Assembly: GCA_028287925.1 (NCBI GenBank)
Contig: JAQBOS010000086.1
Span: forward strand, 1 to 46,790
Length of the DNA stretch: 46,790 nt
Source: Mucilaginibacter sp.
GTDB taxonomy: Bacteria > Bacteroidota > Bacteroidia > Sphingobacteriales > Sphingobacteriaceae
Direction of reading: 5' to 3'
The translations under genes and the position numbers were made by a program. Positions 16,480 through 35,330 of the stretch are shown one piece after another (positions within the stretch are counted from its first letter, which is position 1; each line of letters begins with the position of its first letter). The notes beneath the pieces were generated by a model. That model was not told the origin of the DNA, ran no database searches, and saw only the letters and a list, made by a program, of their open reading frames with translations.

Positions 16480-16519
16480 AAATAAAAGATTTGAGTTAAA
16501 TAGAAAGCCGGTTACCGGC

Positions 16520-16557
16520 AAAAAATAAAAAACACCGCATTTCAGAATTGCGGTGTT
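16520..16557 (-). terminator. Intrinsic terminator just upstream of the first transfer gene
   Basis: AACACCGCA/TGCGGTGTT stem followed on the minus strand by TTTTATTTTTT. Confidence 0.7.
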
Positions 16558-16757
16558 ATAGCTAATGATAAGCTAAATGTACCGGCAGCGGGTATCGAGC
16601 CCGATAATTCGCTTCTGCCAGTATATATTTTCGGGATTACTCACGTCAGATCCTACGATCCGGGCTATTCACCTGCCTTCGCGTTTTCAGATTATTGCGG
16701 TTTTACGCTCACCTTCGCGAAATTTCCGGCTTCTCGCCGGATAATGCTTTATCCCCT

Positions 16758-16799
16758 AATGTCAAATAACGCTTGTTTTACAATCAGTTGAGCTGATTG
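16758..16799 (-). promoter_or_regulatory. Hairpin plus boxA-like sequence in the transfer-operon leader
   Basis: CAATCAG-CTCAA-CTGATTG hairpin followed 10 nt later by GTTATTTGACATT. Confidence 0.4.
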
Positions 16800-16862
16800 A
16801 TCGACTACTATTGTTGTAATCGTTGAAGCAAAGCAAGCGGAAATGGGGATGCGCATCCAGTG

Positions 16863-16894
16863 AAGGGGGGTGAAACAAATTTTTCACCCCCCTT
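16863..16894. promoter_or_regulatory. Perfect 13-bp inverted repeat, candidate operator of the transfer promoter
   Basis: AAGGGGGGTGAAA-CAAATT-TTTCACCCCCCTT. Confidence 0.55.
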
Positions 16895-17223
16895 GTAGCA
16901 GATGGCATTATTTTACTCGGTGAAAATATTTAATTAATTGAATTTAAGCGTGTTAATGCAGTTTATCAGCATTCATTATTTCGGCTAAACCTATTTCATG
17001 GCCTATACAAAATGCTGATAAAACACTTATGGAAGCATCAGTTTGCCCCCAACTCTATGTAGAAAACCTGGCGGTAATCTATCGCGGATAATTCAGCAAG
17101 TCTTTCCATGGAAAGCTTTTTTGGGGTGCTAAGACTTTTTGCCCTTAAGACTAAAAGGGCCAAACTGGGGAACAAGTAAGTTTATGAGAAACCTAATACT
17201 GGATTTAGACTAATCTTTGTTCG

Positions 17224-17967
17224 TTATCGCTTCCGTGAAGTTTTAAGTAGTTTGTTGGATAAGTAGCAAGTGAAATTTTCCCTGTAACTCTCACCAACAG
17301 TAAAGGATAAATTATTATTCATCCTAATCGTATTTCCCTCGATATAGTTGATGCAATCGGTCGAAATGATAAAGGCTCTATGAAACTGTTTAAATTCATT
17401 ACGAGATCCTAATAGTTCCAAAATATCTTTGATTGTTAAATAAGCGGTTAGGATTTTATTGCTGGCCAAATGTATTTTAACATAATTGTGTGAACTTTCA
17501 AAAGCAATAACTTCTTTATATCCGACTTTGACTATTCGCAAATCTTCCTCTTTATTTTTAACAAGGAAGTATTCATCATCTTGGGACAATTCTGAAATCC
17601 TTACTGGCTTTTCATTTGGAAATAATCGATTGATCGTCATGGAAAATTTTCCAAAAGTGAAGGGTTTTAAGAGATATGCATCACCTTCCACTTCAAAAGC
17701 TTCAAACGCATACTTTGAATGGGACGTAATGAATATTAATTTTTTGGTTTTGTGCCTGATAGCTTTCGCTAATTCTATTCCAGACAAAAATGGCATATCG
17801 ATATCCATAAAAATCAAGTCGATATTGTTTTCCAGGGTTACGCTTTCTAAAGCCTCAAGAGGGTTTTTATATATATCTACGACATTTAGTTTTGGGAGAA
17901 GTTCGATGTATTTTAGAATCGCATCAACAGAAAATTGTTCATCATCAATAATAATACAATTCAACAT
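17224..17967 (-). CDS. LytTR-family response regulator
   Basis: REC domain IIIDDE..FMDIDMP..YLLKP; LytTR domain FKQFHRAFII. Confidence 0.95.
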   Translation of the reverse strand: MLNCIIIDDEQFSVDAILKYIELLPKLNVVDIYKNPLEALESVTLENNIDLIFMDIDMPFLSGIELAKAIRHKTKKLIFITSHSKYAFEAFEVEGDAYLLKPFTFGKFSMTINRLFPNEKPVRISELSQDDEYFLVKNKEEDLRIVKVGYKEVIAFESSHNYVKIHLASNKILTAYLTIKDILELLGSRNEFKQFHRAFIISTDCINYIEGNTIRMNNNLSFTVGESYRENFTCYLSNKLLKTSRKR

Positions 17968-18449
17968 ATGTTCTTATTGTTATGCCGATCAGAAGGTTTA
18001 CCCATTTAGGCTGGGCAAACACTTCTCTTACGACAAAGTAAGTAATATTTTATATTAACCTGTAAATTTGTATAGTTAGTTTTATAATTGTTACGTAATT
18101 AACCTATTCTATATGAGGACTGTCTGGTAAATTTCTTCCTAAGCAACAATTTTGAAAGCCCCTAAAAACAACTAATTAACTAAATTAATCGTAATAAAGG
18201 TAATGCCCTCCTTTGTTACCCCAAAAGGAGTGTTTTCTACATAGAAAGGTTTGTTTTCTTAATTGATAAATAAATGCTGTAAAACAGCATTGTAAAATAG
18301 ATAGCTGCCCTTGCTTAATTGCCCGATATAATTGTCCCTAATTAAATATTGCCCTATCTGTGATCATTCGATTCGGATAAAAAAATATCATAATGAATAG
18401 TGAGCTACTATGATAAAATTACGGATTTTGTGCAATTAGTTTCTTTTAT

Positions 18450-19193
18450 ATGAATATAAATAAATGCATTATCATAGATGATGAGCCTTACGCTATTGAA
18501 GGACTTAAAAATTATATCGGCTCAATTCCAAATTTAAGCGTATTTAAATCGTACACTGATCCGGTGCAGGCACTAATCGAACTGGCAGCTTCTGACATGG
18601 TTGATTTAATCCTTTTAGATATAGACATGCCTAAAATAACAGGGATTGAGTTATCCAGGGAAATCAGGCAAAAAACCCGTAAACTGGTATTTACGACCTC
18701 CTACACCCAATATGGTTATCAGGCATTTGAAGTGGAGGCGGACGCTTACCTGCTAAAGCCATACACCTTGTCCAAGTTTGCTGCTACAATTTCAAAATTG
18801 TTTCCAAAAGAAGAAAAGTTTAGGCTGGAAGGTAACGTAACTGATGATTATTTTTTTGTCAAGAATAAGGATGACCATTTAAAAATCGTAAAAATCAGGT
18901 ATGACGAAGTGATCGCGGTGGAAAGCAAACAAAATTATGTCATGATCCATACGCCAACCAAAAAAGTTCTCACCTATATGTCGCTTACTGAAATTTCCAA
19001 AATTTTCAGACCCGTTCGGAAATTTGAGCAGTTTCAGCGCAGTTTTATTATTGGTAAAGATCACATCGATTCGATTGACGGCAACACAATCAAAATGGTC
19101 AATGGTCTTCAGATTACTGTTGGCGAATATTTCAGAAAGGATTTTTCGACATTTTTATCGGAAAAACTTATAAAGGCAAGGCGTAAAGAATGA
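18450..19193 (+). CDS. LytTR-family response regulator (divergent paralog)
   Basis: REC domain IIIDDE..LLDIDMP..YLLKP; FEQFQRSFII. Confidence 0.95.
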   Translation: MNINKCIIIDDEPYAIEGLKNYIGSIPNLSVFKSYTDPVQALIELAASDMVDLILLDIDMPKITGIELSREIRQKTRKLVFTTSYTQYGYQAFEVEADAYLLKPYTLSKFAATISKLFPKEEKFRLEGNVTDDYFFVKNKDDHLKIVKIRYDEVIAVESKQNYVMIHTPTKKVLTYMSLTEISKIFRPVRKFEQFQRSFIIGKDHIDSIDGNTIKMVNGLQITVGEYFRKDFSTFLSEKLIKARRKE

Positions 19194-19215
19194 CGCCTTT
19201 GCCTTTATTAAAACG

Positions 19216-19374
19216 TTAATTTGAACGACCTGCATTGAAAACACCAGTTTTCGTCATGGTTATCATGCTCGTTGTTGGGTCTGTCCCCTCTGTTTCAGTA
19301 ACGTTTTTTAACGAGTTTTGGGGTTTGTACACAAAAAGTGTAGTGTCGGGGATCTTAAAATGTTTCTGTTTCAT
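19216..19374 (-). CDS. 52-aa Cys-free Thr/Ser-rich putative RiPP precursor (candidate LanB substrate)
   Basis: Manual translation MKQKHFKIPDTTLFVYKPQNSLKNVTETEGTDPTTSMITMTKTGVFNAGRSN; fills the gap between LytTR and the kinase; below the ORF-track size cutoff. Confidence 0.75.
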   Translation of the reverse strand: MKQKHFKIPDTTLFVYKPQNSLKNVTETEGTDPTTSMITMTKTGVFNAGRSN

Positions 19375-19466
19375 AGCGTTTTTTTATGAAACTTATATTG
19401 AATTTTAACCCGATAAAAAATAGTTATACAGAACTATATTTTTTCTATTTAGAAAGGGCGACTATC

Positions 19467-20597
19467 ATGAAAAGAATATTTTCCAGTTGGTTCAAAAAAT
19501 ACAGGATTCATATATTAGTATGGATAATATTTATTTTATATGAATCAATTACAATAGGCTGGCTACTTGGCGTGTTCGGCAATCCAATAACTTATGCTGC
19601 ACATTATATTATTATTATTTCCCTCTTTTATTTTCATGCCAACTGGTCAATGCCCTGGGCACTGACTAACAATAAAAGGATACTGTGGAAGGTCCCAGCC
19701 ATCTTGGTGCTGGAAATAGTGGTATTTATTTTAATATCTTTTTTTACTGATAAATTATTGATCATTACCCATATTCTGTTTAACAAGGGCCCTCTGATAC
19801 TAAACCTTCAATATAGCTTAAAAACATTCTTTAGAGACCTTTATTTTATTGGATTTTCTACAGGCTATTACTTTCTACTTACTTATAATAAGGAAAAAAG
19901 GAAGACAAATGAACTTGAAAAACAGCGATTAAAAGACATTATTTACCAGCAGAAATCGGAGCAGGATCTAACCAAGGCACAAAATGCATATTTAAAAGCG
20001 CAGATAAACCCGCATTTTTTATTCAACACATTAGACTTTGTTTATCACAATATTTTGACCTTATCGCCAAATGCAGCGGACACAATTATCACATTATCTG
20101 AGATGATGCGTTATGCAATAGATTCTGATAAAATGGGTGATTTTATTCCGTTAGGAGATGAAATAGATCAGGTTGAAAATCTTGTGTATTTAAACCAGAT
20201 CCGGAAGAACCATGAGTTAGGTTTCATTCTGGAATACGAAGAAAATGTCCGGCAAATCTATCTTACTCCTTTAGTCCTGCTGACAATTGTAGAAAACATC
20301 TTCAAGCACGGCAACCTTACAGAAGACGGACATAATGCATTAGTCCATGTTTATTTGAAGAATGAAACATTTTTTATTGAAACGGACAATTTGATTAACC
20401 TTAGAACTAAAGGAGCAGGCAATAATAAAGGCATGAGTAATACAGAACAAAGATTAAAATATGCTTACGGAGATAATATTTTATTTAACTATTATTCTGA
20501 CGAATCAAGTCATTTTAAGGTTCAGTTGAGTATTCCGCTGAAACAGCTGAAATACCCCGGCGAGCCTTTAATATTTTTACCAGATACTGATATATAA
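19467..20597 (+). CDS. LytS/YehU-type membrane histidine kinase
   Basis: About four TM helices, AQINPHFLFNTL H-box, VENIFKHG; likely start MKRIFSSW at 19467 (ORF track 19386). Confidence 0.92.
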   Translation: MKRIFSSWFKKYRIHILVWIIFILYESITIGWLLGVFGNPITYAAHYIIIISLFYFHANWSMPWALTNNKRILWKVPAILVLEIVVFILISFFTDKLLIITHILFNKGPLILNLQYSLKTFFRDLYFIGFSTGYYFLLTYNKEKRKTNELEKQRLKDIIYQQKSEQDLTKAQNAYLKAQINPHFLFNTLDFVYHNILTLSPNAADTIITLSEMMRYAIDSDKMGDFIPLGDEIDQVENLVYLNQIRKNHELGFILEYEENVRQIYLTPLVLLTIVENIFKHGNLTEDGHNALVHVYLKNETFFIETDNLINLRTKGAGNNKGMSNTEQRLKYAYGDNILFNYYSDESSHFKVQLSIPLKQLKYPGEPLIFLPDTDI

Positions 20598-23367
20598 TCG
20601 CCTCGTGAATTCGCTGGTCGGAAATAAAAAGCCGGTTAATGTGCATATGCAGTAAATCTGCTGTCAGATTTATTTTGTCAGTATTGTTATCGCATTGATT
20701 CATGATTTCGACAAATTCAATTTCATAGCGATCATGCAACTTGTCTAAACCAGGTACAATTGTAATCACTAAAGATTCTTTATGCCTTTGAAACGATTGA
20801 TTTATTTTTTTGAAACTTTCCTGGTTCATACTTAATTCCTTTTTAAAACTATCTGCCATATTGGTGACAAACAAAATTTGAGCGTTAATCTCTTCAAAAC
20901 AACTTTCTATCAATCTTTGCATAGTTACCAGGGTAATAGCATAAAGTTGTACTGTTGAATATTTCTTCGCCAATAGGGATAAAATCGCTCTGCTATCAGT
21001 ATAGAAAAACCCTTCAACCAGGCTAATCCGGCTCGAACCGTACCGCTGGACTTCGCGTATATATGTCCTTATTTGTATGTCTGAAATTAATCCCGATAAA
21101 AAATCTTGTTCCAATAAAGAATTAAGCCGGTTGATGAAAAGATACCCCTGAGATATTTCTTTTAATTGCACGCGTAATCGGAGGTGTGGCTTAGGATCGT
21201 CATAGCGGATAAAAAACCATTGCTTAATATTTTGCCTGCCCTCTTTTAAAAACACAGCAACCTGGTTAAGTAAGACGGCGTTTCTTCGGGATTGATGGCA
21301 ATAAATTTCGAAATACAGCCAGTCGCTTCCTGGAAATGATATGCTTTTGACTGGATGATTTTGTTCCTTACCATTTGCAAAGTTTTGAAGACCCGAATAA
21401 ACTCTATTTTCATGGCCGTAGTTTAAAATATATTCGGCCACATATGGCTTTCCTTTATCATCTTTAATAGATACTTCCTTTGATAATAAAGCTTCAGAAA
21501 TATACATATACTTTTGTTGATTTTGACGGCAAAAGAGCAAAAACGCAATCATATCGGTTGCTATTTTGGGGTCAAAGCAAAGTGTCTGGTCTGAAAAGCC
21601 TGTTTTAAAAAGAGAATTAATACCACATTTCTGTAGCCAGTTTCCCAAAATCGTCAAAGCTTTTAGTGGCTCATCACCATCATTGATTTTCAAGATGTCC
21701 GGCGGGACTTGCCACATGGCTGGGGAAACAATTATATTTTTATATACTACCCTCGGATAACGATCCAGGTTGGGAAAAAATTGCTGAATCTTAAAACTCA
21801 GGTCGGATCTGATCCCCTGGTGCTGGAGATCACAAAGAAACCGGTAGACTGCAAGGTCTGAACGGGTATAATTATAGGCCGATGGAATTCGTGGAACGAG
21901 TCTTTTACCAAACTTCTTTGACCAAAGTATAACTTCAGAATTCCTGACGCCAACCAGAATATCTTCAAAATGAATTGGGGAGGGGTCGTTTGACCAGGTT
22001 AATATAGGCAGTTCGTATTTATAAAGCTGCTTCCGGCGGTTTACATTATCAACTTGTTTTTCCGCCTGATATGCAATGTCAAAAAAAAGTATTTCTGGGT
22101 TTGCTTTCTCTTCTAAAGACGAGATCTGCTGACCTAATTTCTCAAGTTCCGGGCTGGCGATAGTAAAACGACCTATTAGTGCGTTCGCTGTACAGCCCCC
22201 TAAGCTTACAATAACCGGTTTGTCGCCATAGAAATGTAGCATGACACTAAAACTGTTAGGTAGTGGCAATGAACTCTCGGTTTTAGTGTTTTCAAATTCC
22301 TCTAACCGTATGTCACCATTTTTCATTAAGGCATTCAATAAAAAAAGATGTAATTTGGTGTAGGATATCTGTAATTCCTGGCGATCCTTCTCATTTACTG
22401 AATCTAAAATATCTATCAGCTCCTGATCGCTCAAATGATTGCCAAGGTTGCCATAGCCAATCCCGATTTCCGGGTCCATTGCAATAGTGAGCGGAACTGC
22501 AGCAAGTTCAAACTTTTTAAGGAATGCGTTGCGAAAATCACTTAATTGACTATTTCCTGAAGTGGGCAAATTCAAATGTAAAAGTTTGACCAACTCAGAA
22601 ATATCTTTGACTTTCCTGCTATTAAGACCCCCAGATAATAATTTACGTTCTGAGATAACGTACACTTTGTTTGATGTCTCCCGTTCAATTTTTAACCGAT
22701 CAAAATAATCGTCACCAGTTATATTTGGAAGCAGTTCTGTTAACAGGAGTTGAAGACTTAATAATTGCTCAAGCAGAATGTTAAGGTCCTTTACATTCAG
22801 TTGGTAATTGGATTGCATGTATCCATAAACTTCCTGTTTATTTGTTTTTTCCTTGCACAGCCTTAAAATACCGGTAAGTTCTGGGAACTCCATTACTGAA
22901 GTCATTTCAAAACATTCATTTTTAAAACGGATAAAACGTATTTCATCGCCGACTGTGTAGACTGTGGAGTTTGTTTGAAACCATGATGAACATTTAACAA
23001 CTTTGCTGAAATCTTCAATGTATTTATCCTTTTCCCCCCAGTCTATAAATTGTTTGGCAAAAATATTTTGATTCAATATCAAGGGGGAAGAATCTTCTTT
23101 TGAAAACGGGATAGGTGTAAATGCAGCGAAGCCACCAAAAGGCGTTGCTCTATATTTTGCTCTATTAAAATATTTCCAAATGGAAAAGCCTATTTTTTTA
23201 TTGGCTGTTTCTATTGAAGGAAAATCAATATGTTCAATGGTCTGGTAAAAAGAAGGTGAAGCCTCACTGATAAGAGTTTTTAGTTCCTGCCATTTTTCTT
23301 CTATGGTATCATCTACGCTGAATACAGGCGTCCGGCAAATAACTATATCCAACAAATTCAACTTCAT
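20515..23367 (-). CDS. lanB: Class I lanthipeptide-type dehydratase (glutamylation plus elimination domains)
   Basis: CRTP, KYFNRAKYRATPFGGFA, YPRV; C-terminal WFFIRYDDPKPHLRLR, YIREVQRYG, HMHINRL; 950 aa. Confidence 0.93.
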   Translation of the reverse strand: MKLNLLDIVICRTPVFSVDDTIEEKWQELKTLISEASPSFYQTIEHIDFPSIETANKKIGFSIWKYFNRAKYRATPFGGFAAFTPIPFSKEDSSPLILNQNIFAKQFIDWGEKDKYIEDFSKVVKCSSWFQTNSTVYTVGDEIRFIRFKNECFEMTSVMEFPELTGILRLCKEKTNKQEVYGYMQSNYQLNVKDLNILLEQLLSLQLLLTELLPNITGDDYFDRLKIERETSNKVYVISERKLLSGGLNSRKVKDISELVKLLHLNLPTSGNSQLSDFRNAFLKKFELAAVPLTIAMDPEIGIGYGNLGNHLSDQELIDILDSVNEKDRQELQISYTKLHLFLLNALMKNGDIRLEEFENTKTESSLPLPNSFSVMLHFYGDKPVIVSLGGCTANALIGRFTIASPELEKLGQQISSLEEKANPEILFFDIAYQAEKQVDNVNRRKQLYKYELPILTWSNDPSPIHFEDILVGVRNSEVILWSKKFGKRLVPRIPSAYNYTRSDLAVYRFLCDLQHQGIRSDLSFKIQQFFPNLDRYPRVVYKNIIVSPAMWQVPPDILKINDGDEPLKALTILGNWLQKCGINSLFKTGFSDQTLCFDPKIATDMIAFLLFCRQNQQKYMYISEALLSKEVSIKDDKGKPYVAEYILNYGHENRVYSGLQNFANGKEQNHPVKSISFPGSDWLYFEIYCHQSRRNAVLLNQVAVFLKEGRQNIKQWFFIRYDDPKPHLRLRVQLKEISQGYLFINRLNSLLEQDFLSGLISDIQIRTYIREVQRYGSSRISLVEGFFYTDSRAILSLLAKKYSTVQLYAITLVTMQRLIESCFEEINAQILFVTNMADSFKKELSMNQESFKKINQSFQRHKESLVITIVPGLDKLHDRYEIEFVEIMNQCDNNTDKINLTADLLHMHINRLFISDQRIHEAIIYQYLVKILKARRGISAVSAEYSTEP

Positions 23368-23484
23368 AGTAAATTTCCAAACAAGCCGGAATGGGATTCG
23401 CTCCGTGACTTGACCCTGTTTTATTTCTTCAAAAGAATGATTATTTGATGTTCTAACTCACTGTTTTTTATACAATGGGCCAAT

Positions 23485-23516
23485 TTCGGGACAGAAAGGG
23501 GGGAATTCGGGAGATA
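23485..23516 (-). promoter_or_regulatory. 21-bp-period direct repeat TCCCGAA upstream of lanB (LytTR-type spacing)
   Basis: Minus strand TATC-TCCCGAA-N14-TCCCGAA; the same motif occurs at 37199-37232. Confidence 0.55.
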
Positions 23517-23895: not shown

Positions 23896-24834
23896 ATGCT
23901 GGTATTCGGAACTCAAATTCATATTGTCACTGCTATTTTTATCGGACTTGAAATTTTGATGTTCATATTTAATTTGGCCAGTTACTTCTATTGGCCGAAC
24001 GATAAAAATCGTGGCTGGTACTTATTATTATTGTTTTTGATGCTGCTATACAACATCACATGCGGCCTTTTTCCTGATCCCCAATTTAACATTCCCCTGA
24101 ACGTACAGGAAATGATCGCCTACGGTACTGGTTTCCTGATGGCTTCCTATTTCCCATTCTATTTTTATAAGGTGTTTGATTTGAAAAACCTGCGCTGGCA
24201 TGCACTTATTGGAGTACCTCTATTCCTGATACTTCCTTATATAACCTTCTTTGTTATCTGCTATTCAATTAATGGCAAATTACAGTTAGACATCCGTTAT
24301 GGTATGGTTGTTCCTTTATTTTATGGGCTTGTCCTACTTAAGGTTATCTTCGGTTCTATCCGGGAAAAATATAAAACAGATCGTGATAAAAACCAATACA
24401 TTGAGGAGGTAGCAGTGTATTGTGCTATCAGCCCCTGGGCGGCTTTGGCTTTTTTCGAAATGGTAGAAGAGAGCCAGTTGACAGAGATCGTTTGCACAAA
24501 TTTTGGCATCCTCCTAATTTCCGCCCTGTTTTTGACAAGATCGATCAGTAATGCGCGACAAGAGTTTGATAAAAAACAAAATGTGCTGAATATTGATGGA
24601 ATTAGATCGGAGGAATTTTTGGCAAATTGTGTGCATCACGGCTTGACCAGGACAGAGATTCTAATAGTTCAAAAAATATACAAAGGCATGAAGAATATCG
24701 AGATTGCCAACACCATGTTTATATCAGAAGAAACAGTAAAAAAGCATATTCAAAACATTTTCCGAAAAACAGCGGTTCAAAATCGGTCAGCATTGATTCA
24801 TAGGCTTCAAAATCATCGTAAGTGTTTAATTTGA
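23896..24834 (+). CDS. Membrane-embedded LuxR-family regulator (multi-TM sensor plus C-terminal HTH)
   Basis: About seven hydrophobic segments; LTRTE..KGMKNIEIANTMFISEETVKKHIQNIFRK. Confidence 0.9.
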   Translation: MLVFGTQIHIVTAIFIGLEILMFIFNLASYFYWPNDKNRGWYLLLLFLMLLYNITCGLFPDPQFNIPLNVQEMIAYGTGFLMASYFPFYFYKVFDLKNLRWHALIGVPLFLILPYITFFVICYSINGKLQLDIRYGMVVPLFYGLVLLKVIFGSIREKYKTDRDKNQYIEEVAVYCAISPWAALAFFEMVEESQLTEIVCTNFGILLISALFLTRSISNARQEFDKKQNVLNIDGIRSEEFLANCVHHGLTRTEILIVQKIYKGMKNIEIANTMFISEETVKKHIQNIFRKTAVQNRSALIHRLQNHRKCLI

Positions 24835-26113: not shown

Positions 26114-26572
26114 ATGGAAAGTATGATTTTAAAAAAAGGTAGGGTTCAGCTTTCAGAGCTTGCAAAGGAAAGGCTAACTATATGCATTCGTTTTGTTTGT
26201 ATGTTTTTATTCCTCTATGCAGCATATGCCAAAATAATTGATCATGACCGTTTTTTAACGGGTTTATCAAATGTGCAGATCGTTAGTGCTATTGCGGTTT
26301 ACATTTCCTGGTTTGTTCCAATAGCCGAAATCATCATTTCCTTTTTATTACTGATTCCACAGACCGCTAAGTTAGGGCTTTATGGATTTATTGGTTTAAT
26401 GACCATATTCATTGGTTATATCATCAGTGTTCTGCTTTGGGAAAAATACCTTCCATGCCATTGTGGCGGAGCCATCGAAAAGTTAAGCTGGACACAGCAT
26501 ATATGGTTCAATCTCGCATTTATAATAATTGCCATAATTGCTCTCCGACTTTCTAAGTCAAACAAATCTTAA
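26114..26572 (+). CDS. MauE/DoxX-family redox-associated membrane protein
   Basis: LFLYAAYAKI, VPIAEI, LPCHCGGAIEKLSWTQHIWFN. Confidence 0.9.
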   Translation: MESMILKKGRVQLSELAKERLTICIRFVCMFLFLYAAYAKIIDHDRFLTGLSNVQIVSAIAVYISWFVPIAEIIISFLLLIPQTAKLGLYGFIGLMTIFIGYIISVLLWEKYLPCHCGGAIEKLSWTQHIWFNLAFIIIAIIALRLSKSNKS

Positions 26573-26585
26573 ATAATTACAAAAA

Positions 26586-26882
26586 ATGAAAAACGTAAAA
26601 CAAATAGCCTTTGGCCTGATTATAGGTTTAATGGCAATCGGGTTTAGTGCATTTACCAATGCGAAACCAAACAAGTCGAAATTCACAACATTTTATTACG
26701 GGCTGAACCATGCCGGTGATACCTATATTAGGTCTACAACTAATCCAGCATCAGGTTGTCACACTGCTTCATTACCTGATTGTGTGATTAGCTATCCTGC
26801 CGATAAGGGAGCAACGCTTGACCCCAATTCTTTACCTACAGGATCAACTGTAGTTAGCGGCCCAGGCTGGGTAAATCCATAA
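26586..26882 (+). CDS. Small secreted two-Cys protein (DUF6520-like)
   Basis: Signal peptide ending GFSAFT; C-x7-C; directly after MauE/DoxX. Confidence 0.75.
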   Translation: MKNVKQIAFGLIIGLMAIGFSAFTNAKPNKSKFTTFYYGLNHAGDTYIRSTTNPASGCHTASLPDCVISYPADKGATLDPNSLPTGSTVVSGPGWVNP

Positions 26883-26889
26883 TTGATTT

Positions 26890-26927
26890 AAAAGGTTGCG
26901 ACCTCACATGAGATCGCAGCCTTTTTT
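26890..26927. terminator. Bidirectional intrinsic terminator
   Basis: AAAAGGTTGCGA..TCGCAGCCTTTTTT between convergent genes. Confidence 0.8.
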
Positions 26928-26928
26928 A

Positions 26929-28398
26929 CTATAGATTACTTTCAATTAATGCTATAAAATCTTTTTTACTTCTTTCATCGAAGGGTTTAGTAGGATTGGC
27001 AGATATGACATTTCCATCCTTGCCTATGATGAGCATACTTGGGAATTCTGTAAACTTATAATGGAGAAAAAAGGTGTCGCGTTGCCCCAAACCTGTTGTC
27101 CGGGCATAAATCGAATGTTTTGTTCCATATTTCCCCAATTTAACACCGGCTTCAAAGGCTCTATCTTCAGTTTGTACGCCATTGACATTGAGGAAAACCA
27201 CATCTTTTCGGGATTTGAAATATTCTGCAATAGGATCTAATTTTTCTGACAATGCAATACAAGGTACACATCCATTTTCATAAGTTTTTAAGATTACTAC
27301 CTTTCCTTGAAAATCATCCAGTTTGATCGCTTGTCTTTTTACCCCGATAAAACTAAAATTATACGCTCTTACTCCCGGTGTTTTTGCCTGTTCTATTTGT
27401 TGTAAAAGCCTTCTGCTGTCGGCATCCCTTACAATTGATATAGCCTCTGGTAAGAGTTTCATTGAGACAGGATCTTGTAGTGCTGCTTCCAGAAAACAAA
27501 ACGGAATTAATTTATCTTTTAGTAAGCCTTGATATTCGCTTTTGATGTTATTATAAATTATTGTAACGGGAGCTAATTGGCTTTTCGACCTAATCATGGC
27601 TACCGTTTTATTTAGTTCAAAAACATATTGAACATACATGTATGAATTTTTAATCAGGAACGGATCTATTATGACAAATCCATTTTGCTGGGTTATCAGA
27701 AAGTTTACTTCCCGTTTGAGATTATTCAAATAAGTGGTATCCGGGAAATAATACGGTAGAGTTATTCTGTTTAAATAGTCTTTGTTTATAGCGCTCGCGG
27801 TATTGGTTCTTAATAAGTCTTTAATTCTGTTATCGTTCAGGGAGGAGTCTTTATTCAGAGAATCGAGGGATAGAGCCATATGCCATATGGCCCGTTTTTT
27901 ATTATCAACCATCATTTGGAGCAGTGAATTGCTATCCTCCGATTTTAATAATTTTAAATCTGAAACGATTAACTTTCCCGCCCAGTGCTGAAAATTCAAT
28001 TTTTCACTTCCTAAGCCGGAAAATCGTACATCATTCTCATGTGCGATATCCATAAAGATACTATCGCCCCTCGCAATCATAAACTGATAAAAAGTCACTG
28101 ACCGGATCATCCTGGCGCCTACACCTACTAAGTCGAAATAACTGATATCATTTTCGGGTTCTATGGTCACGCTGAATTTCCTGTTTTCTATATGGAGCGG
28201 TATTATTTTACAGGATTCCGGATTTTCCCGATTATAATTTGAATAGAATTCAATATAAGGGCCATTCGTGGCTGATCCAATTAAAGAATCAGAAATCTTC
28301 CCTGAAATTATAATTCGGTTGGGAACAATTTTTGTTACACTTTGCGCTAAACTGTTTAAACTGCTTAAAAGCAAAAAAACGCTTATCAATTTTTTCAT
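26929..28398 (-). CDS. Exported TlpA/ResA-like thioredoxin-fold protein
   Basis: Signal peptide MKKLISV (alternative start 28410); FQGKVVIL..GCVPC; FPSMLIIGKDG. Confidence 0.85.
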   Translation of the reverse strand: MKKLISVFLLLSSLNSLAQSVTKIVPNRIIISGKISDSLIGSATNGPYIEFYSNYNRENPESCKIIPLHIENRKFSVTIEPENDISYFDLVGVGARMIRSVTFYQFMIARGDSIFMDIAHENDVRFSGLGSEKLNFQHWAGKLIVSDLKLLKSEDSNSLLQMMVDNKKRAIWHMALSLDSLNKDSSLNDNRIKDLLRTNTASAINKDYLNRITLPYYFPDTTYLNNLKREVNFLITQQNGFVIIDPFLIKNSYMYVQYVFELNKTVAMIRSKSQLAPVTIIYNNIKSEYQGLLKDKLIPFCFLEAALQDPVSMKLLPEAISIVRDADSRRLLQQIEQAKTPGVRAYNFSFIGVKRQAIKLDDFQGKVVILKTYENGCVPCIALSEKLDPIAEYFKSRKDVVFLNVNGVQTEDRAFEAGVKLGKYGTKHSIYARTTGLGQRDTFFLHYKFTEFPSMLIIGKDGNVISANPTKPFDERSKKDFIALIESNL

Positions 28399-28399
28399 T

Positions 28400-29785
28400 T
28401 TATCTAACATTTTGTTTAATGCCGCTCAGGCTAATTTCATCATCTGGAATTGGGAAAACATAAAGCGACGAATTTGGAGGTAGGGTATATACAACGCCAT
28501 TCAGGTTTCTCTGTAATGTAATTTTCGCTCCGTCTCTATTATATCTTTTCAGATCAGACCATCTCAATGCTCTCCATACCAATTCCTTTCTTCTTTCTAA
28601 TAAAATCCGAATTAAGGCATTTGCCGCATTGGAAACCGTAAGAGGAGTGTATGATCCTGTTTTATAGCGGCTTACTAATAATTGATTTAAGACGGCGACT
28701 GCTGTTTGGGTATCATTACTTCGGGCGGCACATTCCGCTTTAATAAGCATAACCTCGTCAGTAGCTAAACCTGTAAAAGCATAAAAGCCACCACCAACAT
28801 ATCCACGTTTTAGATTATAATTGTTAAGGCTGTTTTTCTCAAAAAAAATAGGTAGTCTTAAATCACTTTTATTATACAGCTGTATTAAATTCGTATCCAC
28901 CCCCAAATTTGTATAGTAATCGGTGTAGCCTGTTGTTGCATCGTAATTATAAACCTGAGTTGAAAAAAATATTGTTTCTTCTGTGGTATATGAAAAAGGT
29001 GTTTCAGTTGTGGTGTCTACTTTGTTGTAATCAATTATCGTATTGTATTTCTTTAAGCATTCGTTCGCTGCGTTACCTGCGTCCGTGTATTTTCCCATGT
29101 ACAGATATACTCTTGCAAGCATGGCATATGCGGCGGATCTGGAAGGCCTGTTCGGATTGGTTTTGGAAATGTCATTATTAAGGAGGCTTACCGATAAGTT
29201 TAAATCAGCGATAATCTGATCGAACGTCTGTTGAAGGGTCGAACGTTGAACTGTTACGTCTATACCGGATGACATCCGCAGAGGTATTCCTAAATCTGTT
29301 GTCGCTGTTCCCTGATTATAAACGGGGGAAAAATTACGTGCGAGATCAAAAAAAGCATAGGCGCGAAAAAACAGAGCTTCGCCTGCTATATTATTATATT
29401 GAACTTGATTAGCCGCATTAGTGCCAATTGTTTTAAGTCCATCCAAAACGCTGTTTGCATAAAATACAGCTTTATAAACCTGGTTCCAATCGGGCTGATT
29501 TGTTTCCCCTCCATATAAATCTTTGTTCCATAAGTATGCTCCTTTATAAGTTAAGTTATTTAAAGCATCAAAGTCACTTTGGCTAACAATGAAATATTCA
29601 TCGGAAGACATCTGCGGTAATGCGCCCGTTTGATTTAGTGCTGTGTTATTTTCAAGCAACGCCTGAAAACCATTCAAGGTCGTCGGATTTACAATGTTAG
29701 AACTTGGTTTTGCATCTAAGAAACTCTTTTTACAGGCTCCCAAAAGGAGGGCCCCTAAGAATAAAATTATAATGTGATTTTTCAT
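28400..29785 (-). CDS. susD: SusD/RagB-family lipoprotein
   Basis: Lipobox LGAC, GEALFFRA, ERRKELVWRALRWSDLKR, YVFPIP. Confidence 0.95.
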   Translation of the reverse strand: MKNHIIILFLGALLLGACKKSFLDAKPSSNIVNPTTLNGFQALLENNTALNQTGALPQMSSDEYFIVSQSDFDALNNLTYKGAYLWNKDLYGGETNQPDWNQVYKAVFYANSVLDGLKTIGTNAANQVQYNNIAGEALFFRAYAFFDLARNFSPVYNQGTATTDLGIPLRMSSGIDVTVQRSTLQQTFDQIIADLNLSVSLLNNDISKTNPNRPSRSAAYAMLARVYLYMGKYTDAGNAANECLKKYNTIIDYNKVDTTTETPFSYTTEETIFFSTQVYNYDATTGYTDYYTNLGVDTNLIQLYNKSDLRLPIFFEKNSLNNYNLKRGYVGGGFYAFTGLATDEVMLIKAECAARSNDTQTAVAVLNQLLVSRYKTGSYTPLTVSNAANALIRILLERRKELVWRALRWSDLKRYNRDGAKITLQRNLNGVVYTLPPNSSLYVFPIPDDEISLSGIKQNVR

Positions 29786-29795
29786 AAAGAATCAT

Positions 29796-32700
29796 TTAAA
29801 AGTTTGTGGACAATCCAATTGAAAGTGTTTTGGGATTTACAAAAGCAGAGTAGAGGTAATCCGGATCGAGGCTTTGTTTGGTAGCTTTCCAGAGTATTCC
29901 AACATTATTCAAATAGGCATATATCTGCAGGTTCTTAAAAATCGGTTTGCCAATTAAGGATTTGAAATTGTATGACAGGCGGACATCCTGTAACCGGATA
30001 TTATCAGCCTTCTCCACTAAAGTGCTTGAGCCTTGAAAGAAAGCATTTTGTGCACTATTAAGGGGGTAGATGAGCGCCGGAATATTTGTTTTTAATTCAT
30101 CACCAGGCACCTGCCATCTTTTATCAAAGTCGGCGTAGCTATAACCATAACTGCCAAAAGCATTGCTTCCCGAAAAAACATTAGCCCTGCGAAAATAATA
30201 GTCAAACTTATAAACGATGTTAATGGAAAGTTCAAAGCCGACATAAGTAAAACTGTTGCGAAACGATCCGTAAATTAAAGGGGTCGCCGAACCGTTATAG
30301 GTTAGATTTGAGGCATCTGTAGAACGGGTTATGCCGGTAAAATTTTCGCTAATAATACCATTTAACAAGCCCTGTGGTTTCCCCTTATTATCTAAACCTC
30401 TAAAAGGATAGCTGAATATTGCATTATAAGGGTATCCCTGGAGCGGATTTGCATAATTTCCAATGATTATCTGCGCGTTATTAAGTTGCTTTACTTTGTA
30501 ATTGGTAACAATATCTTTTGTATAACTGAACAGAAATGTGCTTTGCCATCTTAGTTTTGAATTTCCAATACTGTTTTTGTTAAAAACAAAATCTACACCA
30601 GTGGTCTTTGTATCAGCGGCATTGCCTTTAAACTGTGTTATACCGGTCTGTGGCGCAATTGGACTATTTGCAATCAGGTCGATCCCATTTTTGATATAAT
30701 AATCCAGATTACCGGAAAATAGGTTGTTTTTTGTAGCGTAGTCAATCCCAAAATTAATATTTCTATCCTTTTCCCAGCGCAAAGAAGGATTGGGAGGATT
30801 AATGATGTTCGTATATTCAGTATTCCAGAAATTAGCACCGCCATCCTGTGCAGTAAGGTAGGCTGATGTTGTTTTATCTACATTTCCGTTATAACCATAA
30901 GTAACTCTCAATTTTAAAATTGGAAGTGGGTCAAAGTGATAAAAACTTTCTTTGTTTATGTTCCACATTAAACCTGATGACCATAAAGGAACACCTTTTT
31001 GATTGGTACTAACCCCAAATATGTTTGATTCATCGCGCCTGGCACTTGCCGAGAAAGTGTATTTACTTTTAAAAACATACGAAGCATTGGCAAATGCTGA
31101 TCTTGTTCTGTCAATAGTAAAGTTTTTTGAATTTAAATATGGAATAGTAGCAGAGTTATAAGAGCCAAAGTACTCGGGGAAATAATCAATATTATCAACA
31201 GGAAGTGATGAGTCTGTCGAGGGGTCAAAGCCATATAGAGTATTGGCAATTGATGACGACTGGTAGTCTTTAATTTCTACCCCTGCAAGCACATTTAAAT
31301 CATGTTTGTCGCCAAATTTTTTCGCATAATTAATTTGAGCCCTGCCGTAACTTGAGGTGTAACTGCTGTTGCTTGTATTATCGATTCCACCGGATGGAAC
31401 CGGGCTTGTAACATTCCCGGAGGTTGGATCTATTTGGCTAAATGAATTGATTAGATTTCTTGCGTAAAACGAATTGGCGTCATACAGCTGATTGTAATCA
31501 CTAAGTCCTCTCTCATATTGGTAATAGATACCAACATTTAGGCCCTTCAAAATTTGGTAGTTTAGATTTGTATTTAATTTGTAATCCGTAAGATTCGTGC
31601 TCGTGTTATTGGTATTTTCATCAAGCGGACGATAATTCCAGTCAAGCAGGTTACCAGTTCCTGCAGTATCGGTGTACTGCTTTCTTAATCCGGTACTTTG
31701 AACCACCGTAAGATGATTTCCATTTGCATCCGCTAACTGTTCATAGGGATATAGGGGTTTTGTATAGGCATTACCATTGTTTTTTGTTTTGCTTGTTACT
31801 AAAAGTAAGCCAACAGTTAGCTGCAATTTATTTTGGAGCAGATAGTATTTATTATTAGCATTCAGCGTAAACCTATTATAACTGCTACCGGCAATGTTCT
31901 GCAAATCTTTATCATATCCTGCTGAAACATAATAAGTATGTGTTTTACTACCACCGTCTATACTTAACGCGTATTGTTGATTGAACGATGGTCGATAAAT
32001 ATATTTTTGCAGGTCATTTCGTACATCAAGTGTTTTTAGCCGATTAATTTGCGCTGCAGAATCTGCTGTAGAGATTTGGACATTTCGCTTTTGAAGCATA
32101 ATAGCCACAGCGGGCGATATGGTACTGTACCCATCATTAATGGTGTTATTATAGTACCCTCTATTAAATAAATATTGTTCAAGTCCAATGTAATCGGTGG
32201 AACTTATTTGCGACTGATAATACAAATTCGGGCGGCTGGAAACAGTCATACTGGCATTAAAGGAAATGTGAACTTGATCGCTGGGTCTGCCCTTTTTGGT
32301 AGTTATAACTATCACTCCATTTCCGGCTCTAACACCCCATATGCTTGCAGCCGCGGCATCTTTGAGTATTGAAATGCTTTCTACATCATTTGGGTTAATG
32401 TTGGTAATATCTCCATCGTATGGAAAATTATCAACTACAATTAGTGGGTCAGGATTTGCAAATATGGTGCTTCGCCCTCTGATACTTATAGTCGCATTAT
32501 TACCTGTACCTAAACTCTTATTAAAAATTAAACCACTCGTAACACCATCCAACCTATCAAGTATATTTGTACCTACTCTTCGATTTATTAAAGCACTATC
32601 TATTAACACAAAGCTTCCCGTTGCTCGCTCTTTAGGTAAGGTTTGATATCCTGTTGAAACAATACTAACTGCATCTAATTTGGAATCATCTGTTTCCAAC

Positions 32701-33311
32701 ACTATTGTCAAATAACCTGAATCATCCGCAATCGCAATCTCTTTTTTTATAAAACCGATAAAAGAAATCTGCAGAATTGAATTTGGAGAAACATTATCAA
32801 ATGCGAATTCTCCATTTTTGTCGGTTATCGTAAGTTTATTTTCACCCTTTATCCTGATCGTGGCTCCCTGAAGAGCCTGCCCGTTGGTATCAGTGACTTT
32901 CCCCTTTAATGGTATTATTAATAAATGCTTATTTTCAGCAGGCAGCACCTTAAGTTTTGGAGCGTCATAACTGATTACAATTTTATCGTCAATAACCCGA
33001 AATGTTAATGAAAATGGAGCCAACAATTGTTTCAATACCTCTTTTAGTGGCTTGTTTATAGCATGAATGCTAACAGAATTAAGGATAAACTCTTTAGAGT
33101 TACTATAGATGATCGCTACGGATGCTTTTGCTGAAATTTTATCTAAACCCTCCTTTAGGCTTATTTTATCAAAGCTTATCGTAATCCTTTTTTCGAGGTC
33201 TTGGGTGTTTCCTTTTGCTTCAGCCATTGAAGGAAGATTTGCGAAACTATTTATAAAAATTATCAACAGAATCATTTTGATTGTTCGGTAAATGGGTAAT
33301 GTTTTTATCAT
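29796..33311 (-). CDS. susC: SusC/RagA TonB-dependent transporter with N-terminal STN signalling domain
   Basis: TGYQTLPKERATGSF, LKDAAAASIWGVRAGNGVIVITTK, C-terminal Phe. Confidence 0.96.
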   Translation of the reverse strand: MIKTLPIYRTIKMILLIIFINSFANLPSMAEAKGNTQDLEKRITISFDKISLKEGLDKISAKASVAIIYSNSKEFILNSVSIHAINKPLKEVLKQLLAPFSLTFRVIDDKIVISYDAPKLKVLPAENKHLLIIPLKGKVTDTNGQALQGATIRIKGENKLTITDKNGEFAFDNVSPNSILQISFIGFIKKEIAIADDSGYLTIVLETDDSKLDAVSIVSTGYQTLPKERATGSFVLIDSALINRRVGTNILDRLDGVTSGLIFNKSLGTGNNATISIRGRSTIFANPDPLIVVDNFPYDGDITNINPNDVESISILKDAAAASIWGVRAGNGVIVITTKKGRPSDQVHISFNASMTVSSRPNLYYQSQISSTDYIGLEQYLFNRGYYNNTINDGYSTISPAVAIMLQKRNVQISTADSAAQINRLKTLDVRNDLQKYIYRPSFNQQYALSIDGGSKTHTYYVSAGYDKDLQNIAGSSYNRFTLNANNKYYLLQNKLQLTVGLLLVTSKTKNNGNAYTKPLYPYEQLADANGNHLTVVQSTGLRKQYTDTAGTGNLLDWNYRPLDENTNNTSTNLTDYKLNTNLNYQILKGLNVGIYYQYERGLSDYNQLYDANSFYARNLINSFSQIDPTSGNVTSPVPSGGIDNTSNSSYTSSYGRAQINYAKKFGDKHDLNVLAGVEIKDYQSSSIANTLYGFDPSTDSSLPVDNIDYFPEYFGSYNSATIPYLNSKNFTIDRTRSAFANASYVFKSKYTFSASARRDESNIFGVSTNQKGVPLWSSGLMWNINKESFYHFDPLPILKLRVTYGYNGNVDKTTSAYLTAQDGGANFWNTEYTNIINPPNPSLRWEKDRNINFGIDYATKNNLFSGNLDYYIKNGIDLIANSPIAPQTGITQFKGNAADTKTTGVDFVFNKNSIGNSKLRWQSTFLFSYTKDIVTNYKVKQLNNAQIIIGNYANPLQGYPYNAIFSYPFRGLDNKGKPQGLLNGIISENFTGITRSTDASNLTYNGSATPLIYGSFRNSFTYVGFELSINIVYKFDYYFRRANVFSGSNAFGSYGYSYADFDKRWQVPGDELKTNIPALIYPLNSAQNAFFQGSSTLVEKADNIRLQDVRLSYNFKSLIGKPIFKNLQIYAYLNNVGILWKATKQSLDPDYLYSAFVNPKTLSIGLSTNF

Positions 33312-33499
33312 GTTTGACGTGTTTAATTATTTTATTGGTTTATTTAATTAGTCAAAAAGCTTTAGGACAGGCAATAGGAAGTCCATAATGCAAGAGTTCT
33401 ATCTTTTGCAGTGCCTTTATTCAAGTACTTTAATGAATTGATTGCTCGTTTTTGAGCAGGATATTTTAATCTATGTTTGAGGTAATTTGCGTATGAATT

Positions 33500-34543
33500 T
33501 CATTCTTCGCATCCTCCTTTCAATATGTATTTATCCTTTTTAATGACGACTTTAGCATTTATTGCAGCTGCCAGTTGTTCCAATACAATGTTTACTGGTC
33601 TATTGGTATTAAATTCACCATAACACAGGCAGTTCTTTGATTTACTTTCTATTTCAATTGGAATCTTGTAATATCTTGAAAAGTCACCTACTACGTCTTG
33701 AACAGGTGCCCCATCGTAATTTAATATACCATCTTTTCGACTAAGCATTTGACTGGCATTCGGATAATTTATGCTTATTAGGCTGCCATTTATTTTATTA
33801 AATTGGCTTTGATGATTTGGTTTTAGAACTACCGTTTGAGGGCCTACATTCGATAATCCCTTTGCAGTAACTTTTACAATGCCTGTTACAACGGTGACTG
33901 TACTATTTGTTTGTGCTTTAAATGATTGGATATTGAAAGATGTACCTACTACGCGGGTATCCATCCGTCCACTATGAACAACAAACGGATGCTTTTTATC
34001 TTTTGCGACTTCAAAAAAAGCTTCGCCTTCCAGTTTTACCTCACGTAGATTTCCTTTTAACTGATCTGGATATTCGAGAGAACTGGAAGGACTAAGCCAT
34101 ATTTTTGTTCCATCAACCAAAACCAGGGTCTTTCGTTCGCCTTGTTTGGTGTTTATTGTATAGAATTTGACTGGGTGTATAGCTTTCTTAATTTCCCACT
34201 GGAAATAGTTTATCATCAACCCACCAGCTCCAATTATTAAAAACCAGACTGCACAAATCTTGGCCCATTTGTACAACCGTGAATTTTTAGTAGTAGATAG
34301 TTCTCTACTTTGCGTTAAATCTTTAATTAAGTTAGACCTTGTAGTTGCTATTACAGTATCAATATTGGGGTGATCTCTTTTGTCTATTTCGGTGAATTCT
34401 AATTCTGTATTGATTAAAGCGCGTAATACCTCTTCATTTTCAACAATATCAAAATACCTCAATAATCGTTTGATCTCCTCAGGCGTACACCCACTTTCGA
34501 GGTATTTTACAAAAAGGTCGGCAATATCTAATTGATTTTCCAA
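33500..34543 (-). CDS. fecR: FecR-family anti-sigma factor
   Basis: LVDGTKIWL, REVKLEGEAFFEVAKD, VVGTSFNI; one TM helix. Confidence 0.93.
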   Translation of the reverse strand: MENQLDIADLFVKYLESGCTPEEIKRLLRYFDIVENEEVLRALINTELEFTEIDKRDHPNIDTVIATTRSNLIKDLTQSRELSTTKNSRLYKWAKICAVWFLIIGAGGLMINYFQWEIKKAIHPVKFYTINTKQGERKTLVLVDGTKIWLSPSSSLEYPDQLKGNLREVKLEGEAFFEVAKDKKHPFVVHSGRMDTRVVGTSFNIQSFKAQTNSTVTVVTGIVKVTAKGLSNVGPQTVVLKPNHQSQFNKINGSLISINYPNASQMLSRKDGILNYDGAPVQDVVGDFSRYYKIPIEIESKSKNCLCYGEFNTNRPVNIVLEQLAAAINAKVVIKKDKYILKGGCEE

Positions 34544-34632
34544 TGTTGTTTTTTATTCCATCATGCTGCAATTGAAAATCAGGTCTGCTGATAAGAAAAA
34601 TAAATAATTTTTAAAGAGAAAATGGAGTAGGA

Positions 34633-35232
34633 TTATTTTTTATGTAAAATAATCTGTTCTATTATTAACAGAATTGAAATCCCGTTGTTAAGTTGTAAAT
34701 ATTGTTTTAAAGCTTTATTGGCCTTTACGATGTGATCTCTTATTGTAGAAGTGGAGATTCCTAATTCATTGCTCACTTCATCGTAACTTTTGCCTTCCAA
34801 TTTACAAAGAGAATAAACTTGCTTTCTTTGGGGAGAAAGCTTGGCAATCGCGGCATGTAGGAGTTCCCGATCTTGCCTGGAAATGATTATATCCTCCGCA
34901 TTTATATCAAACTCAATATTTGCAATAATTAAATTTTCGATCAAACGATTATCCTTTGCGACTTTCCGGAAGTACATGAAAACCAAATTTTCAGCCACCT
35001 TGTATAAAAATGACTTCAAGGAACCTTCAACTTTTATGGTATTCCTTTTTTCCCAAATCTTTAAAAAAAGGTCTTGCAATAGTTCCTGTGCAATAAATTC
35101 ATCCTTAACTAACCGTAGAATATTTCGGTATAGCTGCTTACTAAATTTGTCATATATTATAGTAAAGGCCCGCTCACTTCCTTGCTGGAGTTGCTGAATT
35201 AGAATGTTTAAATTTTCATTGTCCGAAGTCAT
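34633..35232 (-). CDS. ECF sigma-70 factor (FecI-like)
   Basis: AQELLQDLFLKIW, LSPQRKQVY..EGKSYDEV..TIRDHI; likely start MTSDNE at 35232. Confidence 0.93.
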   Translation of the reverse strand: MTSDNENLNILIQQLQQGSERAFTIIYDKFSKQLYRNILRLVKDEFIAQELLQDLFLKIWEKRNTIKVEGSLKSFLYKVAENLVFMYFRKVAKDNRLIENLIIANIEFDINAEDIIISRQDRELLHAAIAKLSPQRKQVYSLCKLEGKSYDEVSNELGISTSTIRDHIVKANKALKQYLQLNNGISILLIIEQIILHKK

Positions 35233-35330
35233 TTCTTTGCCTCCTGAATTGAAAATCAATGGCAAGCCGAAGGAAATGAAGGCCGGAATACTGCAAATTA
35301 CAATAGGGCCGGTAACCCGCAAAGTCTAAT

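Follow-up and report, generated by a model that had tools for sequence, protein, structure and literature searches.

A cyclase-free LanB cassette with a threonine-rich peptide and a LytTR kinase–regulator pair in Mucilaginibacter: a candidate peptide signalling loop

The LanB cassette and its occurrence in sampled loci

The DNA analysed here (46,790 nucleotides of contig JAQBOS010000086.1, Mucilaginibacter sp. assembly GCA_028287925.1; hereafter the window) carries a cassette of genes encoding a full-length LanB dehydratase, a small peptide, a LytS-type histidine kinase and LytTR response regulators. An earlier note made from the sequence alone had described a kinase and two LytTR regulators interleaved with LanB and the peptide gene, and this arrangement was recovered. 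Pfam and NCBIfam scans over the 46 open reading frames (ORFs) of the window identified LanB (PF04738 and PF14028), the PF06580 kinase and two receiver-LytTR proteins. No LanC, YcaO or ABC exporter was found among these ORFs, which confirms the earlier statement that neither LanC nor YcaO is encoded nearby. The cassette comprises the following features.

17224-17967, minus strand: second, accessory LytTR regulator, 49% identical to the first; predicted target of the proposed loop
18213-18246, minus strand: direct repeat of period 21 before the second regulator gene, kept in loci L006 and L018
18450-19193, plus strand: cognate LytTR response regulator (PF00072 and PF04397)
19170-19208, both strands: hairpin with terminator-like features in both directions, where the regulator and peptide genes converge (z -5.8 and -6.2; 0/200 shuffles as stable)
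19216-19374, minus strand: precursor peptide gene, 52 aa, Cys-free, with a basic leader, an F-x-Y motif, TDPT, a Thr-rich tail and no double-Gly
19388-19395, minus strand: TAAGTTTC, likely the -7 element of the peptide promoter, read from the sequence
19421-19454, minus strand: direct repeat of period 21 before the peptide gene, a predicted LytTR site supported by its position
19386-20597, plus strand: LytS-type histidine kinase (PF06580), likely start at 19467 by alignment; its 3' end overlaps lanB
20515-23367, minus strand: full-length LanB dehydratase, 950 aa, cassette clade A (PF04738 and PF14028)
23465-23498, minus strand: weak repeat-like site before lanB, at chance level (score 11.4) and not counted as a site

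A LanB profile built from 42 homologues matched 143 of 401 genomes of the host family, canonical LanBs included, and 22 of 401 genomes of the phylum; the named homologues came mainly from Mucilaginibacter and Pedobacter. We opened 120 loci of up to 20 kb each, hand-picked from the top and middle of the match lists, and the fractions given here describe this sample rather than the family. Together with the window and locus L001 they make up 122 loci, with 115 LanBs of at least 850 aa. Most of the loci opened were cassettes: 78/115 full LanBs were accompanied by a kinase, a regulator and a peptide, with no LanC within 2.5 kb (eight peptides missed by the peptide profile were added to this count by eye), and the co-occurrence of LanC-less LanBs with TDPT peptides and LytS/LytTR genes anticipated by the earlier note was thereby borne out. 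LanC without kinase, regulator or peptide accompanied 16/115, the pair without a detected peptide 10/115, and the remaining 11/115 fell into other classes. Over all 122 loci, a LytTR regulator was present in 93 and the kinase in 92. The 77 complete cassettes followed either the layout of the window, regulator-peptide-kinase-LanB (36), or the order peptide-kinase-regulator-LanB (41). The peptide gene diverges from the kinase gene in every cassette, and lanB converges on the pair, with an overlap in 62/77.

No gene family beyond the cassette parts was common to most loci, and 13/77 cassettes lie at one chromosomal site beside htpG. A match to the LanC family PF05147 at E 1e-5 was lacking in 43 of 70 cassette genomes, single-contig genomes included, all 43 being at least 92% complete; some LanC-like domain was present in the other 27. 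A single-protein scan of genome contigs returned only one near-identical locus, and an uncultured Mucilaginibacter assembly, at 99% identity, was the nearest named record.

Other cyclase-free arrangements were also seen. Loci L111, L114, L116, L117 and L119, with a different kinase, two regulators, no LanC and no detected peptide, were set aside as cassettes, their LanBs belonging to the canonical clade and their kinases lying outside the cassette kinase clade; they possibly represent a second, independent cyclase-free arrangement. A split LanB without LanC stands beside a shared gene of ~570 aa in family f3 (L069, L072, L080, L081, L083 and L084). In L108 and L110, one kinase-regulator-peptide unit lies between two LanBs, and no LanC-like match was found in genome G348.

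Enzyme, peptide, sensor and repeat sites

The domains, the alignment with NisB and the predicted fold all supported the earlier assignment of a full-length LanB bearing the NisB catalytic motifs. The structure model had a mean predicted local distance difference test (pLDDT) score of 84, and MadB, NisB and MibB were its best fold matches. Counted along the NisB alignment, Y66, R69, R73 and T75 correspond to NisB Y80, R83, R87 and T89, and W552, R732, R775 and H907 correspond to W616, R786, R826 and H961; R786 and R826 are arginines with recognised roles in NisB. These positions were kept in 84-87 of 87 LanBs of the cassette group, with the exception of T75 (78/87); R12, R69, R400 and R775 were conserved in 87/87, Y66 and H907 in 85/87, and R732 was invariant in 42/42 LanB homologues. 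According to the available text on NisB, Y80 and H961 are essential and R14, R83, R87 and W616 important (PMC4341554). One entry in the earlier motif list fared differently: the arginine of its "RY" motif, R721, aligns with NisB R775, and the R775 mutant is described in the same text as unaffected. A split with local support 1.0 divides the LanB tree; the main cassette lineages fall to one side of it, and the LanBs of L066, L108 and L110 to the canonical side.

The previously unannotated peptide gene was likewise upheld, and its family profile extends well beyond the window. Members begin with a basic leader that carries an aromatic-x-aromatic motif; after a variable linker come TDPT, or a sequence close to it, and a tail rich in Thr, which alternates with hydrophobic residues. 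Of the 12,240 small ORFs scanned in these loci, 114 matched the profile, and only four of the 114 were not positional candidates opposite the kinase start; since the profile was seeded from positional candidates, this enrichment is partly circular. A blind search of 37,859 ORFs of the window's own genome gave two matches at E <0.001, both divergent from a cassette-type kinase. Because the matches concentrate opposite the kinase start and the blind search found only kinase-divergent ORFs, the 52-aa gene is, by this sequence evidence, predicted to be more than a chance ORF. Clustering at 50% identity divides the family into 185 clusters. Of the 149 short members listed, which are cluster representatives (the top match, a protein of 1212 aa, was excluded), TDPT was present in 85, the core contained a median of 8 Ser/Thr and was 33% Thr, and Cys was found in the core of 7; the window peptide has none. 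A sub-lineage with one or two C-terminal Cys and no LanC in the locus was observed in L031-L034, L036 and L028. NCBIfam gave no match to 36 peptide members and Pfam none over its cut-off, and Atlas searches with the peptide and with the 124-aa protein described below returned either nothing or leads below 0.9.

The kinase model has four predicted membrane-length helices with short loops and no periplasmic domain; H15, E26, Y47 and R123 are polar residues conserved by alignment in this membrane part. All 77 cassette kinases group in a single clade (local support 0.997), and the remaining LytS-type paralogues encoded by the window's genome lie outside it. The second regulator is present in 6/77 cassettes, which constitute one six-member clade.

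A motif search over 82 peptide upstream regions found a direct repeat with a period of 21, scoring 12.8 as compared with 8.9-10.7 for the other periods from 16 to 26 and 6.7-7.0 for six shuffled sets. After 12/82 placements were dropped as implausible, a two-half matrix was built from 70 sites, with the window locus and its two closest relatives left out. The distance from site to peptide start codon is 80-92 nt in many cases and around 112-118 nt in others. LytTR regulators are described as binding 9-10-bp repeats separated by 11-12-bp spacers (PMC2766830, in its available text), and the repeat is predicted to be a LytTR-type site because a period of 21 equals this spacing. As controls, scores >13 were obtained in 0/136 upstream regions of canonical loci and in 8/317 unrelated upstream regions of cassette loci. 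In the window, the site at 18246 (minus strand) before the second regulator scored 19.3, the best in the window and the fifth best in the 6.2-Mb genome. The best site genome-wide is on contig C514, which had not contributed to the training set; it precedes the gene of another peptide of the family, next to a second kinase. C514:1-1745 is a clade-B-type cassette cut by the contig end, with a kinase start, this strongest repeat, a peptide at 396-545 and an RteC-like gene at 588-1745. Among loci with the window layout, a second site directed away from the regulator occurred in 18/36 as against 0/36 on the opposite strand; 14 of these 18 form one clade, in which the site precedes a gene for a 124-aa protein of unknown function or an HSDR_N-domain protein. 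Matches before the RteC-like gene were rejected as separate sites, since they are the peptide's own site. A sigma-70 scan gave chance-level counts with a model that does not cover Bacteroidota promoters; TAAGTTTC was read as a promoter element from TAnnTTTG, which we take to be the Bacteroidota -7 consensus.

A proposed peptide signalling loop and its alternatives

Taking the observed gene content, layout and co-occurrence, the kinase clade and the positioned repeats together, we favour on balance a self-amplifying signalling loop whose signal is a dehydrated linear peptide and whose output differs between loci; within this loop, dehydration, export, regulator-DNA binding and ligand binding are the inferred events. 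From what is known of the enzyme family, LanB would quite likely bind the basic leader and convert Thr/Ser after TDPT to dehydrobutyrine/dehydroalanine via Glu-tRNA, without forming rings. With similar assurance, the LytTR regulator would bind the 21-bp repeats. The modified peptide would then probably, although with less certainty, be the ligand that activates the four-helix membrane kinase, and the regulator would switch on the peptide gene plus one adjacent target: the second LytTR regulator in the window, the 124-aa or HSDR_N-domain protein in genus g25, and the RteC-like gene in clade-B integrative and conjugative elements (ICEs). The cassette is accompanied by no exporter, protease or double-Gly site, so the peptide would either rely on host machinery or reach the kinase from inside, in the cytoplasm or at the inner membrane, as a single-cell switch; the loop may equally be such an intracellular switch or a form of quorum sensing. 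The earlier idea of a linear dehydrobutyrine-rich peptide in place of a lanthipeptide thus agrees with the cyclase-less LanB, the Cys-free Thr-rich peptide, the linked LytS/LytTR genes and the repeat before the peptide gene, and the dehydration itself is a prediction. More tentatively, the cassette may stand for a new class of signals of ribosomal origin, in which a stand-alone LanB makes a linear poly-dehydrobutyrine peptide and a dedicated Bacteroidota kinase family has this peptide as its ligand; this would be a portable positive-feedback switch, possibly intracellular, with varied outputs including RteC-like genes that head transfer operons.

Several observations weigh against the loop. 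The window peptide's own site scores only 10.5-11.4, which is chance level by score alone, and only 4/64 lanB upstream regions score >13. The genome, with 34 LytTR-type regulators, has 38 positions scoring >16, so that other LytTR pairs probably use the repeat as well and it is not private to the cassette pair. Peptide and sensor co-diverge with a rho of 0.37, no higher than the values for peptide and catalytic domain (0.36) or peptide and LanB (0.39), so that co-divergence would show linkage and not binding. A double-Gly leader end was found in 0/115 locus peptides and 1/149 representatives, as against the majority of canonical precursors in this data set, and a diffusible signal would have no known route out of the cell. 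An Asp column present in 24/27 canonical-clade LanBs, which by extrapolation from the NisB alignment we take as the putative D299 equivalent, is Asp in 0/85 cassette-clade LanBs, and the activity of the cassette LanB may accordingly differ from that of NisB. Finally, near-identical tandem peptide copies, two to seven in number, occur in 13/77 loci and would also suit a bulk product.

The last point leads to an unlikely alternative, that the dehydrated peptide is an end product (an antimicrobial, surfactant or similar) and that the kinase senses another cue and only times production. The alternating Thr/hydrophobic tail would fit such a product, as would the fact that the kinase ligand is only predicted. 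However, no exporter, protease or immunity gene accompanies the cassette, the kinase clade is confined to cassettes in the kinase tree, and the second sites point to regulators and unrelated genes rather than to export functions. PCAT genes, found in 5/77 cassette loci, were rejected as cassette exporters or proteases, as was the C39-VKOR gene of the window, neither being conserved with the cassette. The earlier claim that no protease or transporter is encoded nearby therefore held for the cassette itself and for ABC exporters in the window, and failed for two features outside the cassette:

28400-33311: SusC/SusD pair, not conserved with the cassette
41397-42989, plus strand: C39 peptidase-VKOR-thioredoxin fusion, not conserved with the cassette

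The SusC/SusD pair belongs to a block to the right of the cassette (26114-35322) with MauE, thioredoxin-like, SusD, SusC, FecR and ECF genes; a Crp gene also lies on this side, and a membrane-anchored LuxR-family regulator (23896-24834, plus strand), which recurs on these elements, adjoins lanB. SusC/SusD and a thioredoxin-like gene adjoin 22/77 cassettes, and no repeat was found on the SusC/SusD block.

We consider it rather improbable that the cassette serves as transfer switch for the conjugative element carrying it, with the second regulator targeting either the tra leader or excision genes. The tra/mob region lies to the left of the cassette, and the second regulator, preceded by the strongest repeat of the window, stands directly upstream of the tra leader, a position held by rteC in many related elements. 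Unrelated LanB lineages (the window and L006; L054 and L125; L049) are found repeatedly at one slot across the element family. Clade B contributes 17 loci in which the peptide is followed, within ~70 bp where measured, by a 390-aa gene whose product has a C-terminal domain resembling RteC (hhalign 58.6%, E 9.5e-5); in L057, L100, L105 and L120, this gene is succeeded on the same strand by rteC and tra genes. The rteC gene of CTnDOT is activated by a two-component pair and in turn drives excision, with transfer after it (PMC3809561, in its available text).

Set against this, tra/mob genes were found in the 20-kb locus of 14/77 cassettes and any ICE marker in 24/77, so that the co-occurrence with tra genes expected by the earlier note was absent from the majority. 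A primase search matched 74/401 genomes, and none of 20 further loci upstream of related ICE primases (one of them only 2.4 kb) contained the cassette; rteC directly follows the primase in many of them. A repeat scoring >13 was found ahead of primase, rteC or traE in none of the loci, nothing in the tra leader (16522-17224) exceeds a score of 9 with the repeat matrix, and RteC had no match among the 46 window ORFs. The second regulator also precedes outer-membrane/radical-SAM genes without a primase (L015, L018). Given the empty element loci and the absence of a repeat before these genes, the cassette is cargo that elements of this family may carry or lack, apparently with no direct action on the tra promoter. 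Together with the 13 cassettes beside htpG, these results do not support the earlier idea of an ICE-encoded signal controlling transfer as a general rule; it retains support in clade B, through the RteC-like gene, and indirectly in the window, through the position of the second regulator. The tra leader moreover has elements of its own:

16523-16558, minus strand: terminator-like hairpin with a U-run, immediately ahead of the primase gene (z -4.8 for 16500-16580)
~16631-16757 (approximate ends), minus strand: conserved multi-stem structured RNA, not part of the cassette

The structured RNA occurs in 25 primase loci, with or without a cassette, directly after a likely promoter and before the terminator-like hairpin. 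Of its 29 pairs, 13 change on both sides, 98% of cells pair, and 0/500 shuffles reach this level. No Rfam family matched the window at gathering score, with only chance matches in the tra leader, and the RNA is a candidate attenuator, riboswitch or small RNA for conjugation. Between the second regulator and the tra leader, 17038-17175 (minus strand) holds a short, probably decayed helix-turn-helix remnant without a Pfam match. Other modules occupy the cassette's element slot in L127-L135 and L144: rteC, a C39 peptidase/ABC-membrane protein without an ATPase match and a rhomboid in L127, and in L144 a pyridoxal-phosphate acyltransferase (BioF/Kbl-like, below the cut-off for the alpha-hydroxyketone autoinducer synthase model), a GNAT protein and a membrane LuxR.

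We give little weight to the view that the cassette LanBs form a clade with different chemistry (partial dehydration or stable glutamylation) or serve mainly in peptide binding, the peptide acting in that form. It would explain the loss of the D299 equivalent in 85/85 cassette-clade LanBs and the clade A enzymes being ~75 aa shorter than canonical LanB, with the deletion before the D299-equivalent strand. Against it, the elimination-domain residues R732, R775 and H907 are kept, and the NisB D299A mutant is described as only slightly reduced in dehydration in L. lactis (PMC4341554, in its available text).

Very improbable, and largely refuted, is an ordinary or decaying class I lanthipeptide system with LanC and a Cys precursor elsewhere, for which the window's own genome (86% complete) has a Cys-containing, double-Gly-type precursor followed by a broken LanC fragment (C485:2055-2918), and for which the LanC-like domains of 27/70 cassette genomes and a near-C-terminal Cys in 13/115 locus peptides also speak; the 43/70 genomes without such a domain, the separate side taken by cassette LanBs in the tree and the conservation over 185 peptide clusters, which speaks against decay, stand on the other side. 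The same genome carries a canonical-type LanB truncated by the contig end (C598:21118-23754).

The cassette probably descends, to judge by gene order, from a self-regulated class I lanthipeptide cluster whose cyclase was lost. Loci L066 and L149 (family f13) carry, in this order, LanB, regulator, kinase, peptide and a LanC-like gene, and L150 (family f61) has a related kinase, a LanC-like gene and two strong repeats. The LanC-like proteins of all these loci lack the Cys/Cys-His motifs that we take to be the zinc ligands, and such a gene in two other families is a plausible intermediate on the way to cyclase loss.

Comparison with known systems

With the class I clusters of Bacteroidota (pinensin, PedA15 type), the cassette shares the full-length LanB with its glutamylation and elimination domains, the NisB fold and catalytic residues, and a short precursor with a basic leader. 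In contrast to them it has no LanC, mostly no Cys in the core, no double-Gly and no dedicated genes for leader cleavage and export (C39 exporter, LanT or LanP), and its LanBs belong to separate clades without the D299 equivalent. Leaders of the Bacteroidota class I type are described as LxLxKx5L with a double-Gly, and mining of these lanthipeptides was anchored on LanC, PF05147 (10.1101/2020.03.13.990614, in its available text); cassette loci are invisible to such mining because the search starts from PF05147. NF038153 matched a canonical precursor and 0/36 cassette peptides, and class I clusters adjoin the cassette in L058, L059 and L124. No YcaO, the mark of thiopeptide, dehydrazole and goadsporin clusters, was found among the 46 window ORFs.

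The literature searched, outside which lay supplements and the Pedobacter papers Caetano 2020 and Bothwell 2021 that could mention these loci, held no description of the cassette, and such peptide signalling was not found described there for these bacteria; the available texts of PMC12328550, PMC10352776, PMC13440311 and PMC10885120 contain nothing on it. Pedobacter sp. BAL39 is entered as "LanB only", without LanA or LanC, and the available text of that entry gives no precursor, regulator link or function (PMC3091789); this LanB may be a cassette member.

Nisin (NisA/NisB/NisRK) is the precedent for a LanB-modified peptide that induces its own synthesis (PMC4341554, in its available text), as is proposed here. 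Unlike the proposed product, nisin is cyclised, exported and antibacterial. Its regulator, moreover, is not of the LytTR type. In CTnDOT, the available text of PMC3809561 places a two-component pair, RteA-RteB, upstream of rteC and describes no peptide for RteA. Clade-B cassettes match this arrangement by position only, whereas the window has no rteC beside its cassette and most cassettes lie away from tra genes. If our reading is correct, the clade-B arrangement would offer a candidate input for RteC-type control of element transfer.

Peptide autoinduction through LytTR regulators is established in Gram-positive bacteria, AgrA, ComE and BlpR being examples. A further system, SilCR/SilAB, shares with the cassette a membrane kinase, a linked LytTR regulator, a small peptide gene and direct repeats of ~10 bp with a 21-bp period before the peptide promoter (PMC2766830, in its available text), the sites of the cassette being predicted ones. 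The cassette differs in its Gram-negative host, its LytS-type PF06580 four-helix kinase, the LanB-modified peptide and the lack of dedicated processing and export. If the loop exists as proposed, it would be a common peptide autoinduction system in plant- and soil-associated Bacteroidota, with a LanB whose signalling product is ring-free, and would supply a defined set of enzyme, substrate, receptor and promoter. On this comparison, the cassette falls outside the class I lanthipeptide systems despite its class I enzyme and would work like LytTR peptide autoinduction.

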